Source: Escherichia coli
Lineage (GTDB): Bacteria; Pseudomonadota; Gammaproteobacteria; Enterobacterales; Enterobacteriaceae
Direction: 5' to 3' (one strand)
DNA: 64,000 nt
Assembly: GCF_003790525.1 (NCBI RefSeq)
Contig: NZ_CP033635.1
Shown here: positions 452-22,408 of the stretch, one piece after another
Layout of the letters: each line of letters starts with the position of its first letter
How positions within the stretch are numbered: position 1 is the stretch's first letter
Translations under genes and position numbers: made by a program
Notes under the pieces: generated by a model
The model's database searches: none
Seen by the model: the letters and a program-made list of their open reading frames with translations, nothing else
Told to the model about the DNA's origin: nothing

Positions 452-1609
452 TTATTGTTTCGATTCGGTGCTGGCGTTTTCCTGGCTGGAGGAAATTGCT
501 CGTGCTTTGATACCCGGACGAATGCGTTGCAAACCGGAAACGATCACCCGATCGCCGGCCTGCAAGCCAGAGGTGACAACCCACTGGTCGCCGATGGCTT
601 TGCTGGCTTCAATTTCGCGTAGCTGCACGACATCGTCTTTATCCAGAATGAGTGCCGTTGCTTTACCCTGGGCGTTGTGGGTGACGCCTTCCTGCGGCAC
701 CAGTAATACATTCTGGCGGCTACCTTCATCCACTAATGCCGTGACATACATGCCAGGCAGCAAGTCACCATTTGGGTTGGGGAAAATCGCCCGTAACGTC
801 ACGGAGCCCGTGGTTTCATCTACCGTTGGGTCGGAGAATTTCAGCGTGCCAGTCTGGCTGTAACGTTTACCATTTTCCAGATTGAGCTGTACTGGCGTAC
901 TGCCCTGAACCTGTTTGATTTGCCCACTGGCGACCTCTTCTTTCATGCGCAAGAAATCCTGCACCGACTGCGTGAGATCGACATAAATCGGGTCCAGACG
1001 TTGTACGGTAACCAGCGAATCTGCCTGATTAGCGGTAACGAGTGCGCCGACGGTCACCGACGATTTCCCGCTGACGCCCGTAATCGGCGAGGTGACATTT
1101 GCGTATTGCAGGTTGATAGTCGCCTGTTCAACAGCCGCTTTGGCGACGGTGACATTGGCTTCTGCTTCATTCAACTGGGTGCGCGCGGTGTCGTAATCCT
1201 GACGGCTAACGTAGTTGGTCTTCAGCAACGATGCCTGGCGGTTAAAGGTGATGCGGGCATTGCTGGCGGTAGAGAGCGCTTTCGCCAGCGAACCTTTGGC
1301 GGAGTTCAGCTCTGCCTGTAAAGGCGCAGGATCAATCTGATACAGCGAATCGCCCTGGTTCACTTTATCGCCTTCGATAAAGTTGCGTTTAATGATAATA
1401 CCGCCCACCTGGGGACGTATCTCGGCAACTTCATAAGGAACGGTTCTACCGGGCAATTCGCTCAACACATTGACCGAACCGGGGGAGAGTGTGACGACAC
1501 CGACCTCAGGCGTCATGGCGGCGGCGTTTTCCGCCGATTTGTCATCGCAGGCGGTGAGCATCGCGCCGCAGAATAACAACGGTATTAACAGTTTTCTTCT
1601 TCTGTTCAT
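452..1609 (-). CDS. mdtE: multidrug efflux membrane fusion protein MdtE
   Basis: 385-aa ORF, lipoprotein-type signal (LLFCGAMLTAC), periplasmic adaptor sequence recognised as MdtE; followed by mdtF. Confidence 0.93.
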   Translation of the reverse strand: MNRRRKLLIPLLFCGAMLTACDDKSAENAAAMTPEVGVVTLSPGSVNVLSELPGRTVPYEVAEIRPQVGGIIIKRNFIEGDKVNQGDSLYQIDPAPLQAELNSAKGSLAKALSTASNARITFNRQASLLKTNYVSRQDYDTARTQLNEAEANVTVAKAAVEQATINLQYANVTSPITGVSGKSSVTVGALVTANQADSLVTVQRLDPIYVDLTQSVQDFLRMKEEVASGQIKQVQGSTPVQLNLENGKRYSQTGTLKFSDPTVDETTGSVTLRAIFPNPNGDLLPGMYVTALVDEGSRQNVLLVPQEGVTHNAQGKATALILDKDDVVQLREIEASKAIGDQWVVTSGLQAGDRVIVSGLQRIRPGIKARAISSSQENASTESKQ

Positions 1610-1947
1610 TTTAGTCCCTGAAAATTCTTGAGAAATAACGGTTCTTTAAATTGCGCGCGAGGAGAGATATGAGGGATTTACAGACCAGCGGCATAGTGGG
1701 GTTGTCAGCCAGTAAGATGGGATGCAAGCACAATGATCGACATGGTGAGGTCAACGACAAAAAAAATGTTGCCGTTCTGCCAACAGTTTCTGCCAGCATT
1801 CGGGCAACGAAGGGTTCTACTGGTGGATACACATACCAGGGGAATAAAGTCGTTTTCGTCTCTCCTTCAATAATCACCGGGGGTATTGAAATCAGCATCT
1901 GCATCCCTCGTCATGCCAGCCATCAATTTCAGTTGCTTATGTCCTTA

Positions 1948-2475
1948 CTAAAAATAAGATGTGATACCCAGGGTGACGATGTCGCTCATACGTCTTAATT
2001 TCAGCTTGTACATAATGTTGAATTTCTGAATCTTTAATGTTTGTTGCGAAATGTTGAGCGTTGACGTGATATTGCTTTCATTTTTGTTTTTCAGAATCAG
2101 TTGCATAATTTTGAACTGATTATGTGAAAAACATAGTTGTGAATTCTTATGGGGCAAGTGTTTACCATAAGTAATCTCAAGAAGATTTTTGATACTTTCT
2201 TTACGGCTGACAAAATAAATAGGCGCTTTAGCTTTTAGTTTACTGATGTGATAAGGTGCCAAAACAATAATTCTCTCGGCATCTAATTTCTCCAGAAATT
2301 TAATCGCTTCTTCATCAAGGATATGATTGTGATAGGTATCAATGATAACCTTGAAGGGTTTATTGCCTACTTTTTTGATCTCTGACAGGGAATTGATTTT
2401 TATCATTTCGTGATTATCTTTCAACTGCCAAAAGCCCTGTAAAAGAAAAGAATCTTTCGTCATGAGAAAAATCAT
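1948..2475 (-). CDS. gadE: acid-resistance LuxR-family transcriptional activator GadE
   Basis: ORF track gives 201 aa; the recognised GadE begins at internal MIFLMTKDSFLLQGFWQ (ATG at 2475, 175 aa); C-terminal LuxR HTH. Confidence 0.9.
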   Translation of the reverse strand: MIFLMTKDSFLLQGFWQLKDNHEMIKINSLSEIKKVGNKPFKVIIDTYHNHILDEEAIKFLEKLDAERIIVLAPYHISKLKAKAPIYFVSRKESIKNLLEITYGKHLPHKNSQLCFSHNQFKIMQLILKNKNESNITSTLNISQQTLKIQKFNIMYKLKLRRMSDIVTLGITSYF

Positions 2476-3272
2476 AACTTGCTCCTTAGCCGTTATCGTT
2501 TCGAACATGTCATCCTTTTCATTATTTACATCCTTGTCCGAATCGTTGTTCAATATAGTAAACGCCTATAAGAACTTTGCCCTTCGTGAACTAATACGTC
2601 TATTAACACTAATCAATACTTCAGATTTATCCATCACGCACTCCATATATTGATCCTAAGTAAAATTCCTGGTTGTTATCAATTTGTAAATGATAAACAA
2701 AAAGTTAACGTTTGCGGATTACTGCCCAAGAATAAGTTATCAATAACCAGTTTGTGATCTCTGAAGAATATTACTAAAGTTAAAATGTAATCCGATTTAA
2801 ATATCGAGTCTCCTTGTTTCGACTTAGGCTGGCAATTGGATTGCCAGCTTTCTTTTAACGCATTGAAATTACCTGAGTAAATAACTCATTCATGTCTTCA
2901 GGTTTTTATATAGCGTCTGGAGACACGGATATTTATGCAATGTAATCAACGCCAGCTGCAAAAAAATGAACCCGGATTACTTATTTAACCGCCTATAGCA
3001 TCAACGCTTACAGAACTCTTTGTTCACTTTCCCACAGCACTTTTAAAACATTAAACCTGACCACGGAAAATATCAGCCATGATAATGTTTGAAATGGCTA
3101 ATTTGCCATGGAATGAAAAAATCAGATTAAATTCAGTAGGTTGAAATAATCAACAGCAGGCAATTGTTTCAATGATAGTGCGTAATTGAACTGAAACACT
3201 GTATAGCTAAGAGAGTATTAACTGGATCATAGTCACTTAATGTGACTATGATCCAGGTGGAAATAGGGATAA
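2476..3272 (-). promoter_or_regulatory. long AT-rich gadE upstream control region (multiple promoters and activator sites expected)
   Basis: About 800 bp without credible ORFs between hdeD stop and gadE start; very AT-rich; known from E. coli literature as the multi-promoter gadE regulatory region. Confidence 0.5.
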
Positions 3273-3845
3273 TTATTGCTTTTTAACGAACAAACTGGCG
3301 AAGCTGAACAGACTGGCGGCGCTAAATATCAGTTCAATTCCCACCAGTGTGGAAACCAGCGTTACCGACACCATCGGCGTAGCACCAAGGAATATCCAGG
3401 CAATGACGATATCCAGCACACCAATAACGAGCTGTAGCCAACTGCCTTTCATTGAACGCTGACGATACCAACTCATCAGGCGAATAACCCCTGCCACACA
3501 GAACAAACCGGCAATAAATGCCGCAATGGCAAAAATGCCCAGCTCTGGTGCGCGGATGAAGAAATAGCCGATCAATAAATAGGCGACTGCGACGAGGAAA
3601 CCGGATAATACCGGCCAGAAATTATGACTGCGGTTGCTGAATAACCCGACAATAAGCGCAATACCCGAGCAGATTAATAATGCACCCACTACTGTGCTTA
3701 AAATATCGCCAGAGACGAACGGAAAACTGATACACAGCAACCCGACGATAAACAGCAGCACGGCAATAAACTGGATTGCTCTGCGATGTTTTTTAAGCAT
3801 CTCCAGATCAAACTTCAAAATTGTTGCCTTATCTATATATAACAT
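3273..3845 (-). CDS. hdeD: acid-resistance inner membrane protein HdeD
   Basis: 190-aa hydrophobic ORF recognised as HdeD; divergent from hdeAB. Confidence 0.92.
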   Translation of the reverse strand: MLYIDKATILKFDLEMLKKHRRAIQFIAVLLFIVGLLCISFPFVSGDILSTVVGALLICSGIALIVGLFSNRSHNFWPVLSGFLVAVAYLLIGYFFIRAPELGIFAIAAFIAGLFCVAGVIRLMSWYRQRSMKGSWLQLVIGVLDIVIAWIFLGATPMVSVTLVSTLVGIELIFSAASLFSFASLFVKKQ

Positions 3846-4099
3846 AGAACCACCCTATAAAATTAAGAAGAAAATCCCCTGCTATCAATCTATGCCAAAA
3901 ACGCGTGTAAGAATGCAGTCGATTTAATAAAAATTTCCTAATTACAGTATCTGATGCATCTGTAACTCATTGTATTGAAATAAAAATATCTGATTTTGAT
4001 ATTTTCCATCAACATGACATATACAGAAAACCAGGTTATAACCTCAGTGTCGAAATTGATTCGTGACGGCTCTTTCACTTTATAGTTGAGGATATTACG
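3846..4099. promoter_or_regulatory. divergent hdeD / hdeAB promoter region
   Basis: 254-bp AT-rich gap between divergently oriented hdeD and hdeA; position only, no motif verified. Confidence 0.4.
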
Positions 4100-4432
4100 A
4101 TGAAAAAAGTATTAGGCGTTATTCTTGGTGGTCTGCTTCTTCTGCCAGTAGTGAGCAGTGCAGCGGATGCACAAAAAGCAGCTGATAACAAAAAACCGGT
4201 CAACTCCTGGACCTGTGAAGATTTCCTGGCTGTGGACGAATCCTTCCAGCCAACTGCAGTTGGTTTTGCTGAAGCACTGAACAACAAAGATAAACCAGAA
4301 GATGCGGTTTTAGATGTTCAGGGTATTGCAACCGTAACCCCAGCTATCGTTCAGGCTTGTACTCAGGATAAAAAAGCCAGCTTTAAAGATAAAGTTAAAG
4401 GCGAATGGGACAAAATTAAGAAAGATATGTAA
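4100..4432 (+). CDS. hdeA: periplasmic acid-stress chaperone HdeA
   Basis: 110-aa ORF with signal peptide MKKVLGVILGGLLLLPVVSSA, sequence recognised as HdeA. Confidence 0.95.
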   Translation: MKKVLGVILGGLLLLPVVSSAADAQKAADNKKPVNSWTCEDFLAVDESFQPTAVGFAEALNNKDKPEDAVLDVQGIATVTPAIVQACTQDKKASFKDKVKGEWDKIKKDM

Positions 4433-4547
4433 TTCCGGGAATGCGTTACATCGTATTTCCTTGCATATTGAACAGGCCGGAATATCTTCTTTAAAAGCAG
4501 CTATTCCTCCTGTTTGTATATAATCTCTATATTGAATGGGTTACAAA

Positions 4548-4874
4548 ATGAACATTGCATCTCTCCGTAAAGCGTTTATTTTTATGGGCGCTGTAGCGGC
4601 TTTGTCACTGGTGAACGCACAATCTGCGCTGGCAGCCAATGAATCCGCTAAAGATATGACCTGCCAGGAATTTATTGATCTGAATCCAAAAGCAATGACA
4701 CCAGTTGCGTGGTGGATGCTGCATGAAGAAACAGTATATAAAGGTGGCGATACCGTTACTTTAAATGAAACCGATCTCACTCAAATTCCTAAAGTGATCG
4801 AATACTGCAAGAAAAACCCGCAGAAAAATTTGTATACCTTCAAAAATCAAGCATCTAATGACTTGCCGAATTAA
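4548..4874 (+). CDS. hdeB: periplasmic acid-stress chaperone HdeB
   Basis: ORF track starts at 4536; recognised HdeB starts at MNIASLRKAFIF (ATG 4548, 108 aa), signal peptide then mature chaperone. Confidence 0.9.
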   Translation: MNIASLRKAFIFMGAVAALSLVNAQSALAANESAKDMTCQEFIDLNPKAMTPVAWWMLHEETVYKGGDTVTLNETDLTQIPKVIEYCKKNPQKNLYTFKNQASNDLPN

Positions 4875-4937
4875 TAAGGTACAAGTAAAAAGGAGTAGCA
4901 AGTTGAGCCATCTTGCTGCTCCTTTTTGCATTTTTAT

Positions 4938-5585
4938 ATGACAGCAGAATTTATTATACGTCTTATACTCGCGGCAATTGCCTGTGGCGCTATTGGCATG
5001 GAAAGGCAAATGCGCGGCAAAGGAGCAGGGTTACGCACACATGTATTAATTGGCATGGGAAGCGCCCTGTTTATGATTGTTTCGAAATATGGTTTTGCTG
5101 ACGTGCTGTCTTTAGATCACGTCGGACTGGACCCCAGCCGTATTGCTGCTCAGGTGGTGACGGGCGTCGGGTTTATCGGTGCAGGTAACATTCTCGTTCG
5201 TAACCAAAATATTGTAGGTCTGACGACGGCAGCGGATATCTGGGTGACCGCCGCCATTGGTATGGTTATTGGCAGCGGTATGTACGAACTGGGTATTTAT
5301 GGTTCAGTGATGACCTTGCTGGTGCTGGAAGTCTTCCATCAATTAACCTTCCGCCTGATGAACAAAAATTACCATTTACAGCTGACATTAGTGAACGGTA
5401 ATACGGTATCAATGCTCGACTGGTTTAAGCAGCAAAAAATAAAAACGGATTTAGTTTCGTTGCAGGAAAATGAAGATCATGAAGTGGTCGCCATTGATAT
5501 CCAGCTTCATGCCACAACGTCGATAGAAGATCTGTTGCGATTATTAAAAGGTATGGCAGGGGTGAAAGGCGTTTCAATTAGCTAA
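4938..5585 (+). CDS. yhiD: MgtC-family inner membrane protein YhiD
   Basis: 215 aa from ATG 4938 (MTAEFIIRLILAAIACGAIGMERQ), MgtC/SapB-type membrane domain. Confidence 0.9.
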   Translation: MTAEFIIRLILAAIACGAIGMERQMRGKGAGLRTHVLIGMGSALFMIVSKYGFADVLSLDHVGLDPSRIAAQVVTGVGFIGAGNILVRNQNIVGLTTAADIWVTAAIGMVIGSGMYELGIYGSVMTLLVLEVFHQLTFRLMNKNYHLQLTLVNGNTVSMLDWFKQQKIKTDLVSLQENEDHEVVAIDIQLHATTSIEDLLRLLKGMAGVKGVSIS

Positions 5586-21531: not shown

Positions 21532-21600
21532 ATTGCGCTCCTGATTGTTGCACTTAGTGTCTCTCTTCGAAGCGGATAAGTCAAAAACATATATGGTTTA
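21532..21600 (-). promoter_or_regulatory. arsRBC promoter / ArsR operator region
   Basis: Minus-strand TTGACT (21579..21584 on plus) upstream of the arsR start; position-based, operator not delimited. Confidence 0.35.
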
Positions 21601-21683
21601 ACGAATTCGTATGTGCAGAGGAAGGTAATAGGTGTGAATTTTGAGTTGGGTATTCATTTGAAAGGAGGTCTGAATCAGGACAT

Positions 21684-21770
21684 AAAAAACCGACTTTGCG
21701 TCGGTTTTTTACTCTTCAGCCTGAGTTGGTGGCTCTGGCTGGAGTGAGAGAGCTCTTATCTAACGGTTCA
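21684..21770 (-). ncRNA. agrA: AgrA small RNA (antisense-type repeat of the dinQ locus)
   Basis: Repeat unit sharing tggctctggctggagtgaga...atctaacg with the dinQ 5' UTR, ending in an intrinsic terminator (ccgac-tttgc-gtcgg plus T-run on minus strand); ends approximate. Confidence 0.45.
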
Positions 21771-21915
21771 ATACTATTAGCCAGTGACTAACATTGCAAG
21801 AATTAGCGATTTCTTCAGCTGGCGGAGGGACAGTTTGCTATACATGGTGGTGAAAGAGGATTGATATACTTTCATCGGGTCGCTGCCGTACCAAGCCTTG
21901 TCCGAATCCGGATGT

Positions 21916-22002
21916 AAAAAAACCGACTTTGCGTCGGTTTTTTACTTTCCAGCCCTGAGTTGGTGGCTCTGGCTGGAGTGAGAATGCCATCATCTAACGC
22001 AT
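21916..22002 (-). ncRNA. agrB: AgrB small RNA (antisense regulator of dinQ)
   Basis: Second copy of the repeat, nearest dinQ and most complementary to its 5' UTR (ggagtgagaatgccatcatctaacg vs ggagtgagaatgccattatctaaca), with its own hairpin/T-run terminator; ends approximate. Confidence 0.45.
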
Positions 22003-22052
22003 CAATGCTAATACCATACTGAAACTATTGCAAGGACATGCTGGTTTTATAA

Positions 22053-22068
22053 CCTGAATATACTGTAT
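22053..22068. promoter_or_regulatory. LexA operator (SOS box) of dinQ
   Basis: CTGTATGATTATCCAG matches CTGT-N8-ACAG, about 200 nt upstream of the dinQ ORF. Confidence 0.7.
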
Positions 22069-22271
22069 GATTATCCAGTTAGCTCTGAGGCATTTTCACT
22101 CTGGCAATGCGCATAAACGCTTTCAAAGTCCTGATCAGTGGTACGGGTGGTGCCGTTAACTGATGCTCTGGCCGGAGTGAGAATGCCATTATCTAACAAT
22201 AGGGCATGCGCCGTGACAGGCAATGGATGAGTAAGCGGATGCATTCTCACTCCATCGTATGGAGAACACGG

Positions 22272-22358
22272 GTGATTGATAAAGCAATCATCGTTCTTGG
22301 GGCGTTAATTGCGCTGCTGGAACTGATCCGCTTTCTGCTTCAGCTTCTGAACTGGTAG
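22272..22358 (+). CDS. dinQ: DinQ, SOS-induced type I toxin (small inner membrane peptide)
   Basis: GTG-initiated 28-codon ORF (M)IDKAIIVLGALIALLELIRFLLQLLNW preceded by GGAG; matches the DinQ peptide as I recall it; located between arsR and gor. Confidence 0.7.
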   Translation: MIDKAIIVLGALIALLELIRFLLQLLNW

Positions 22359-22371
22359 CGGAAACGTAGCT

Positions 22372-22402
22372 AAGGGCTAAGAGCACACTACTCTTAGCCC
22401 TT
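22372..22402. terminator. bidirectional intrinsic terminator shared by dinQ and gor
   Basis: 12-bp stem aagggctaagag / ctcttagccctt with 7-nt loop, 14 nt after the dinQ stop and 7 nt after the gor stop. Confidence 0.55.
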
Positions 22403-22408
22403 TAACAT

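Follow-up and report, generated by a model that had tools for sequence, protein, structure and literature searches.

In E. coli, GadE acts as the master switch for acid resistance. Its control region, in which both promoter and leader are very long, is a textbook case of signal integration. In strain K-12 the hdeD-gadE intergenic region measures 798 bp, a size found in only eight of the genome's intergenic regions; transcription starts, as summarized from earlier work, lie at −21, −124 (T1), −324/−317 (T2) and −566 (T3) (PMC3708157). More than ten regulators have been reported at K-12 gadE, namely EvgA, YdeO, GadE, GadX, GadW, H-NS, PhoP, RpoS, CRP, TorR and MnmE (PMC3708157). ArcA binds to promoters P1 and P3, antagonizing H-NS; P3 is the key region for ArcA-dependent activation, and its deletion lowers the anaerobic activity to about one third, while P1 is autoactivated by GadE via a GAD box located in P1 (PMC3708157). 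In the same strain YdeO binds gadEp2p3 (PMC4222967), the gadE leader is bound by CsrA (PMC11210196) and the locus is covered by H-NS/StpA (PMC11230228).

The one feature that K-12 annotates within this region is the ncRNA gene arrS (b4704), which encodes a cis-antisense, Hfq-binding small RNA. ArrS is antisense to the longest gadE 5′ UTR (PMC6755755), and its expression in K-12 depends on sigma-S and GadE (PMC6755755, PMC11230228). It also acts in trans, on cfa and fepA (PMC6755755, PMC11979758). Pairing of ArrS in cis with gadE mRNA is supported by an RNase III cleavage site found within ArrS (PMC6212723).

We analyzed the corresponding interval in a stretch of 64,000 nucleotides from E. coli (contig NZ_CP033635.1), the whole of which is referred to here as the window. 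Positions are those of the window, and negative numbers count upstream from the gadE ATG. The interval is almost certainly the SMS-3-5 orthologue of the K-12 multi-promoter control region of gadE-mdtEF. We base this assignment on what was observed here: sequence identity and synteny, the location of ArrS with its terminator, and selective constraint on three blocks. The genes around it, taken from the ORF list and the RefSeq annotation, are the following.

452–1609, minus strand, mdtE
1948–2475, minus strand, gadE
3273–3845, minus strand, hdeD
4100–4432, plus strand, hdeA
4536–4874, plus strand, hdeB
4926–5585, plus strand, yhiD

The order mdtE-gadE-hdeD / hdeAB-yhiD is the same as in K-12, with hdeD and gadE codirectional and inside the acid fitness island. 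The hdeD-gadE intergenic region occupies exactly positions 2476–3272 (minus strand), with the gadE ATG at 2475–2473 (minus strand) and the stop codon of hdeD starting at 3273, and it is 100% identical to the chromosome of E. coli SMS-3-5 (NC_010498.1) between the annotated gadE and hdeD. An initial sequence-only reading of this DNA had pointed to an unusually long AT-rich gap here, far longer than the usual promoter. The coordinates proved exact, the length is 797 bp, and the K-12 counterpart belongs to the small set of that size mentioned above. The GC content is 34.9% versus 49.6% for the whole window, only 6.8% of 797-bp windows within the 64 kb are as AT-rich, and such a composition would suit silencing by H-NS. 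The same reading called the interval ORF-free, which stands for ORFs of at least 100 amino acids and for annotated coding sequences (none within the interval in RefSeq, SMS-3-5 or K-12) but not for mechanical ORFs, since several of 30–63 amino acids are present on the plus strand. The largest of these, a 63-residue antisense ORF at 2462–2653 (plus strand), carries frameshifts and stops in each of the four non-coli Escherichia sequences and was rejected, and apart from the small upstream ORFs discussed below the interval contains no ORF that remains intact across Escherichia species. In the mechanical ORF list the gadE frame itself is extendable from a TTG start to 2553.

The pairwise alignment with the hdeD-gadE region of K-12 MG1655 is colinear from end to end and contains 42 differences, 41 substitutions and one 1-bp indel, so that the homology to the K-12 gadE leader assumed in the sequence-only reading is upheld. 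The differences are unevenly placed: 28 of the 42 fall in the 180 bp adjoining hdeD, and only 14 positions differ between −620 and −1; identity is close to 99% over that part and about 95% overall (megablast to K-12 derivatives, 95.3% identity, 784/797 bases). The core promoter regions, the arrS gene and the arrS promoter are 97–100% identical to K-12, and the segment from −351 to −220 is 100% identical. One difference (−587) falls inside a GadX/W-like motif and five others (−219 to −207) lie a short way upstream of P1; such changes could tune regulation.

Of 5,426 complete E. coli genomes, 5,413 carry the interval, in every case on the chromosome, and the region together with ArrS is found in about 99.7% of them. 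In E. coli strain 3059 (NZ_CP103559.1) the match is limited to the 230 bp nearest hdeD and coincides with an annotated Tn3-family transposase; the gadE control region appears to be transposon-disrupted in rare strains. The interval is to be regarded as already known, because it is the orthologue of a thoroughly characterized K-12 element, and its intactness in the environmental multiresistant strain SMS-3-5 only confirms the circuitry as part of the species core.

Published K-12 transcription starts (PMC3708157) were carried to the window by alignment. They are listed below with the promoter and leader elements.

2599, minus strand, T1 start (−124), transferred
2799 / 2792, minus strand, T2 starts (−324 / −317), transferred; inside arrS near its 5′ end
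3041, minus strand, T3 start (−566), transferred
2482–2487, minus strand, gadE Shine-Dalgarno sequence AAGGAG (−12 to −7 from the ATG), read from the sequence; invariant in 8/8 Escherichia sequences
2476–2599, minus strand, T1 leader (124-nt 5′ UTR), from the published −124 site
2600–2685, minus strand, P1 promoter region, part of conserved block III
3022–3112, minus strand, P3 promoter and T3 start, conserved block I

The sequence at and around the T1, T2 and T3 sites is identical or nearly so to that of K-12, and the T2 context is identical. That several regulators are integrated through multiple promoters, as the earlier reading proposed, is borne out by this homology together with the K-12 work (PMC3708157). 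By analogy with the K-12 experiments we infer which proteins would bind where, and that the same promoters would fire in SMS-3-5.

Motif scans added candidate sites of variable quality. In the P3 region, a scan with the GadX/GadW ChIP-exo motif (PMC4918353) gave ATGGCTGATATTTTCCGTGG at 3061–3080 (−39 to −20 from T3) with a 17/20 match, a score equalled by 35 of 300 shuffles; the position is consistent with that expected of a class-II AraC-type activator. A YdeO-box-like sequence, ATTTCA-N14-TGATAT at 3070–3095 (11/12), overlaps it, and both fall within the invariant part of block I. The two motifs are framed by a 12-bp inverted repeat at 3042–3053 / 3083–3094 (TTTAAAACATTA / TAATGTTTGAAA, 92% complementary), which shows no variation across the genus and also overlaps the −10 region of P3. 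Upstream of T1, the putative GAD-box-like sequence TTAGGATCAATATATGGAGT at 2640–2659 (−60 to −41 from the T1 start) has a TTAGGA core that is invariant in 8/8 sequences and scores 11/20 to the consensus, which is indistinguishable from chance; its location is consistent with the GAD box reported in P1. Apart from the two block I motifs, scans of the interval were largely uninformative: those for the GAD box, the GadE ChIP-exo motif, EvgA, CRP, PhoP, TorR, H-NS and RcsB were mostly no better than those of shuffled sequence, a direct-repeat match for ArcA (9/10) was marginally above shuffles (40/300), and a generic sigma-70 scan returned 9 sites versus 7.4 expected. Since most consensus scans equal shuffled sequence, individual regulator sites are placed by homology only, and the statement in the sequence-only reading that such sites could not be delimited still holds after these scans.

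The T1 leader has 109 of 125 alignment columns invariant in eight Escherichia sequences (87%). It carries two AAGGATG direct repeats, at 2511–2520 and 2529–2538, which together with the Shine-Dalgarno sequence provide three GGA motifs of the kind that CsrA binds, and this arrangement would be consistent with the reported CsrA binding.

The antisense RNA was also suggested in the sequence-only reading, and mapping of b4704 places it inside the leader with its terminator intact (see also PMC6755755).

2787–2856, plus strand, arrS, mapped from K-12 b4704 via the alignment, 69/70 identical
2826–2850 followed by a T-run, to 2858, plus strand, ArrS terminator stem-loop (terminator scan; 11-bp stem, 3-nt loop)
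2725–2786, plus strand, arrS promoter and upstream region, in conserved block II, identical to K-12

ArrS is complementary to −381 to −312 of the long (T3) gadE leader, and because T2 falls within arrS, only T3 overlaps it fully. The sole difference from K-12 is an A-to-G change that turns an A-U pair of the terminator stem into G-U. Upstream of the arrS start, 92 bp match K-12 exactly, and the arrS promoter region, seen on the other strand, sits just downstream of the gadE T2 starts. The 70-nt RNA is predicted to fold at −19.9 kcal/mol (z = −3.4). Across the genus 63 of its 70 columns (90%) are invariant, and the terminator stem is invariant except for the A-U/G-U switch. Sequences at least 95% identical to ArrS occur in 5,411 of the 5,426 complete E. 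coli genomes, and 1,299 of these 5,411 are at least 99% identical to the ArrS of the window over 70 nt. Rfam 15 gave no ArrS match at E ≤ 1 over positions 1500–5000, nor at gathering thresholds across the window, and appears to lack an ArrS family; arrS is unannotated in SMS-3-5 because of this missing Rfam match.

By homology to K-12, the circuit would work as follows. At rest, H-NS/StpA would coat the AT-rich DNA and silence it. Activators, that is GadX/GadW, YdeO (under EvgA), ArcA and sigma-S, with GadE itself at P1, would fire the nested promoters and yield gadE mRNAs with leaders of about 566 nt (T3), 320 nt (T2) and 124 nt (T1). ArrS, under GadE and sigma-S control, would be made from the opposite strand inside the T3 leader and would pair perfectly with the T3 transcript, leading to RNase III-dependent processing and higher gadE expression; it may also use Hfq to act in trans on targets such as cfa and fepA. 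CsrA would bind the GGA motifs of the short leader and repress gadE.

Conservation was followed across the genus. In a GadE scan with one genome per species the locus was confined to Escherichia, with hits in E. coli, E. albertii, E. whittamii and three other divergent assemblies of the genus. Two contigs assigned to other genera, NZ_JAUFQN010000010.1 ('Flavobacterium paronense') and NZ_JARVKW010000110.1 ('Streptomyces sp. DH24'), carry E. coli-like hdeB-hdeD-gadE-mdtE sequence, the former with frameshifts typical of long-read assembly, and almost certainly represent contamination. The hdeD-gadE spacer is long in all hits (720–794 bp; 720–745 bp in non-coli Escherichia). The footprint was taken as the invariant columns of an alignment of eight Escherichia sequences, with the third-codon positions of gadE as the benchmark.

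3112–3022, −637 to −547, block I (P3 region), 67/91 columns invariant (74%); 3072–3101, 100%
2863–2725, −388 to −250, block II (ArrS and its promoter), 75% invariant; ArrS alone, 90%
2685–2476, −210 to −1, block III (P1 and T1 leader), 83% invariant; T1 leader, 87%
3021–2864, minus strand, about −545 to −390, variable segment of the T3 leader, 7/160 columns invariant (4%)
gadE third-codon positions, 57% invariant
gadE coding sequence overall, 81% invariant

Blocks I to III are more conserved than the third-codon positions of gadE and are therefore under purifying selection. The variable segment is conserved within E. coli, but in E. albertii, E. whittamii and two other divergent Escherichia lineages most of it is deleted or cannot be aligned, and the segment 3113–3219 has 18% invariant columns; roughly a third of the interval would therefore seem dispensable at the genus level. 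This footprint, which separates the constrained thirds of the 800 bp (P3; ArrS with its promoter; P1 with the T1 leader) from a dispensable segment, is a mildly new point.

Could the length be mostly filler, AT-rich spacer DNA that was acquired horizontally and is bound by H-NS, with no function in its size and with only a short proximal promoter that matters? The poorly conserved third, with the segment 2864–3021 largely missing in non-coli Escherichia and the weakly conserved 3113–3219, would fit such a view, as would the coverage of the whole locus by H-NS/StpA in K-12 (PMC11230228). However, the distal blocks I and II exceed the synonymous sites of gadE in conservation and coincide with P3 and ArrS, and removal of P3 in K-12 leaves only about one third of the anaerobic activity (PMC3708157). 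The conservation profile thus largely refutes the filler reading, which we consider extremely improbable. A different proposal is that the conserved leader blocks are structured cis-regulatory RNA (a thermosensor, a riboswitch-like element or a helix sequestering the Shine-Dalgarno sequence) rather than protein-binding DNA. When the T1 leader is folded to minimum energy, the Shine-Dalgarno AAGGAG does pair with an invariant GUUCUU at about −100, but this fold is no more stable than those of shuffled sequence (z = −0.85; 39 of 200 shuffles did equally well), the helix is invariant and therefore offers no covariation, and Rfam has no match in the interval even at E ≤ 1. We regard this proposal as very unlikely.

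It has also to be asked whether translated upstream ORFs regulate gadE, as evgL controls evgA. A 26-codon frame (MECVMDKSEVLISVNRRISSRRAKFL, 2646–2566, minus strand) is carried only by T2/T3 transcripts, and a 9-codon frame (MKRMTCSKR, 2522–2493, minus strand) lies in the T1 leader, its end 17 nt short of the gadE ATG. In 8/8 Escherichia sequences neither frame is broken or carries an indel, the longer one is preceded by an invariant AGGA 7 nt from its ATG, and evgL sets a precedent for a leader peptide in the same circuit (PMC11210196). Yet frames lying in near-invariant DNA are expected to stay open by default, and the 26-codon frame shows little that would mark a peptide: its 12 variable sites are split 3/5/4 over codon positions 1/2/3, the amino acid is altered in 8 of 10 varying codons, and twelve central codons are invariant including their third positions, which points to constraint on the DNA of the P1 promoter rather than on a peptide. 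The T1 start, moreover, falls inside this frame, and K-12 RefSeq annotates no small protein at either one. The Ribo-RET supplement for E. coli has no entry at the uORF coordinates, gadE being poorly expressed under such conditions. The uORFs thus display no sign of coding selection and no codon-position bias, and regulation of gadE by their translation is unlikely in our opinion. Two other candidates were set aside. The 9-codon ORF MADIFRGQV (3080–3051) was rejected as coding, since it precedes the T3 start and occupies the same place as the GadX/W-like motif. The validated small protein yhiY, suspected to lie here, was reported as a potential uORF before yhiI (the yhiY-yhiI pair) and is absent from the K-12 annotation of this region.

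A possible upstream start codon of gadE differs between strains. An ATG at 2506–2508 (minus strand, −33 to −31), preceded by AAGGA in SMS-3-5, is in frame with gadE 11 codons upstream of its start (MFETITAKEQV-MIFLM...), and K-12 has ATA at this position. Exact 40-mer counts over the 5,426 complete E. coli genomes gave 3,908 with the ATG allele and 1,503 with the ATA allele (K-12 and 1,502 others). The ATG is present in all non-K-12 Escherichia sequences examined, and the non-coli species have a further in-frame ATG at −60. As judged from these sequences, the −33 ATG is the ancestral state in Escherichia and the majority state in E. coli, K-12 carrying the minority allele, which is another mildly new point. 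An extended GadE isoform outside K-12 is possible. The broader idea that long gadE leaders carry overlooked translated elements, either the 26- and 9-codon uORFs or a 186-residue N-terminally extended GadE starting at the −33 ATG, is in our estimate improbable; if true, K-12 would be an atypical model for gadE translation.

One structured element adjoins hdeD.

3222–3256, minus strand, hdeD 3′ stem-loop (inverted repeat with a perfect 15-bp stem)

The predicted fold of this hairpin has an energy of −25.7 kcal/mol (z = −8.5), and three of its stem pairs are kept across the genus through changes on both sides, a compensatory pattern that is also mildly new. No U-run follows the hairpin, so it is not a canonical intrinsic terminator. 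It is probably the hdeD terminator or a 3′-end stabilizer.

Several features elsewhere in the window were noted in passing. The only local Rfam match is to the sRNA ES205 (1759–1830, minus strand, 106.5 bits), located downstream of gadE in the gadE-mdtE spacer, in the region where K-12 annotates the 3′-UTR-derived sRNA GadF. RefSeq annotates a 'hypothetical protein' in SMS-3-5 (WP_016234986.1, window about 1669–1998, plus strand) that runs antisense to the 3′ end of gadE and to the GadF region; this call, which overlaps both gadE and the sRNA, appears spurious. From 5637 onward (minus strand), yhiD is directly followed by heme-uptake genes (chuV- and chuU-like ABC transporter genes), so that the chu locus interrupts the acid fitness island in comparison with K-12. 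An Rfam shuA/chuA 5′ UTR thermoregulator matches at 11501–11532 (plus strand). Two Rfam AgrB antisense RNA matches, at 21681–21763 and 21914–21997 (both minus strand), lie in the arsR-gor region at the agrA/agrB-dinQ locus, and both are contained in 21591–22408, the longest stretch of the window without an ORF of at least 100 amino acids; the hdeD-gadE interval ranks second.

Among known systems, a parallel is found in the same island, where GadY, encoded in cis at gadX-gadW, is a sigma-S-dependent, Hfq-associated antisense RNA. Like ArrS, it directs RNase III processing of the mRNA of an acid-resistance regulator and thereby raises its expression. GadY overlaps a 3′ UTR or intercistronic region, whereas ArrS overlaps a 5′ leader, and the two sequences are unrelated. 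The evgL-evgA pair belongs to the same acid-resistance cascade and, as in gadE, has a CsrA-bound leader with GGA motifs, but translation of evgL has been demonstrated, whereas the gadE uORFs are open frames only (PMC11210196). The RNA of the window matches K-12 ArrS (b4704; Aiso 2011, 2014) in its position and strand relative to gadE, in its terminator and in an identical promoter region. A close counterpart of the interval is the K-12 'sensory integration region' (gadE P1/P2/P3; Ma 2004, Sayed & Foster 2009, via PMC3708157), with which the interval shares the flanking genes, the element order and the sequence. The two differ by 798 versus 797 bp in length, and in the window a G at −31 restores the in-frame upstream ATG that is absent from K-12.
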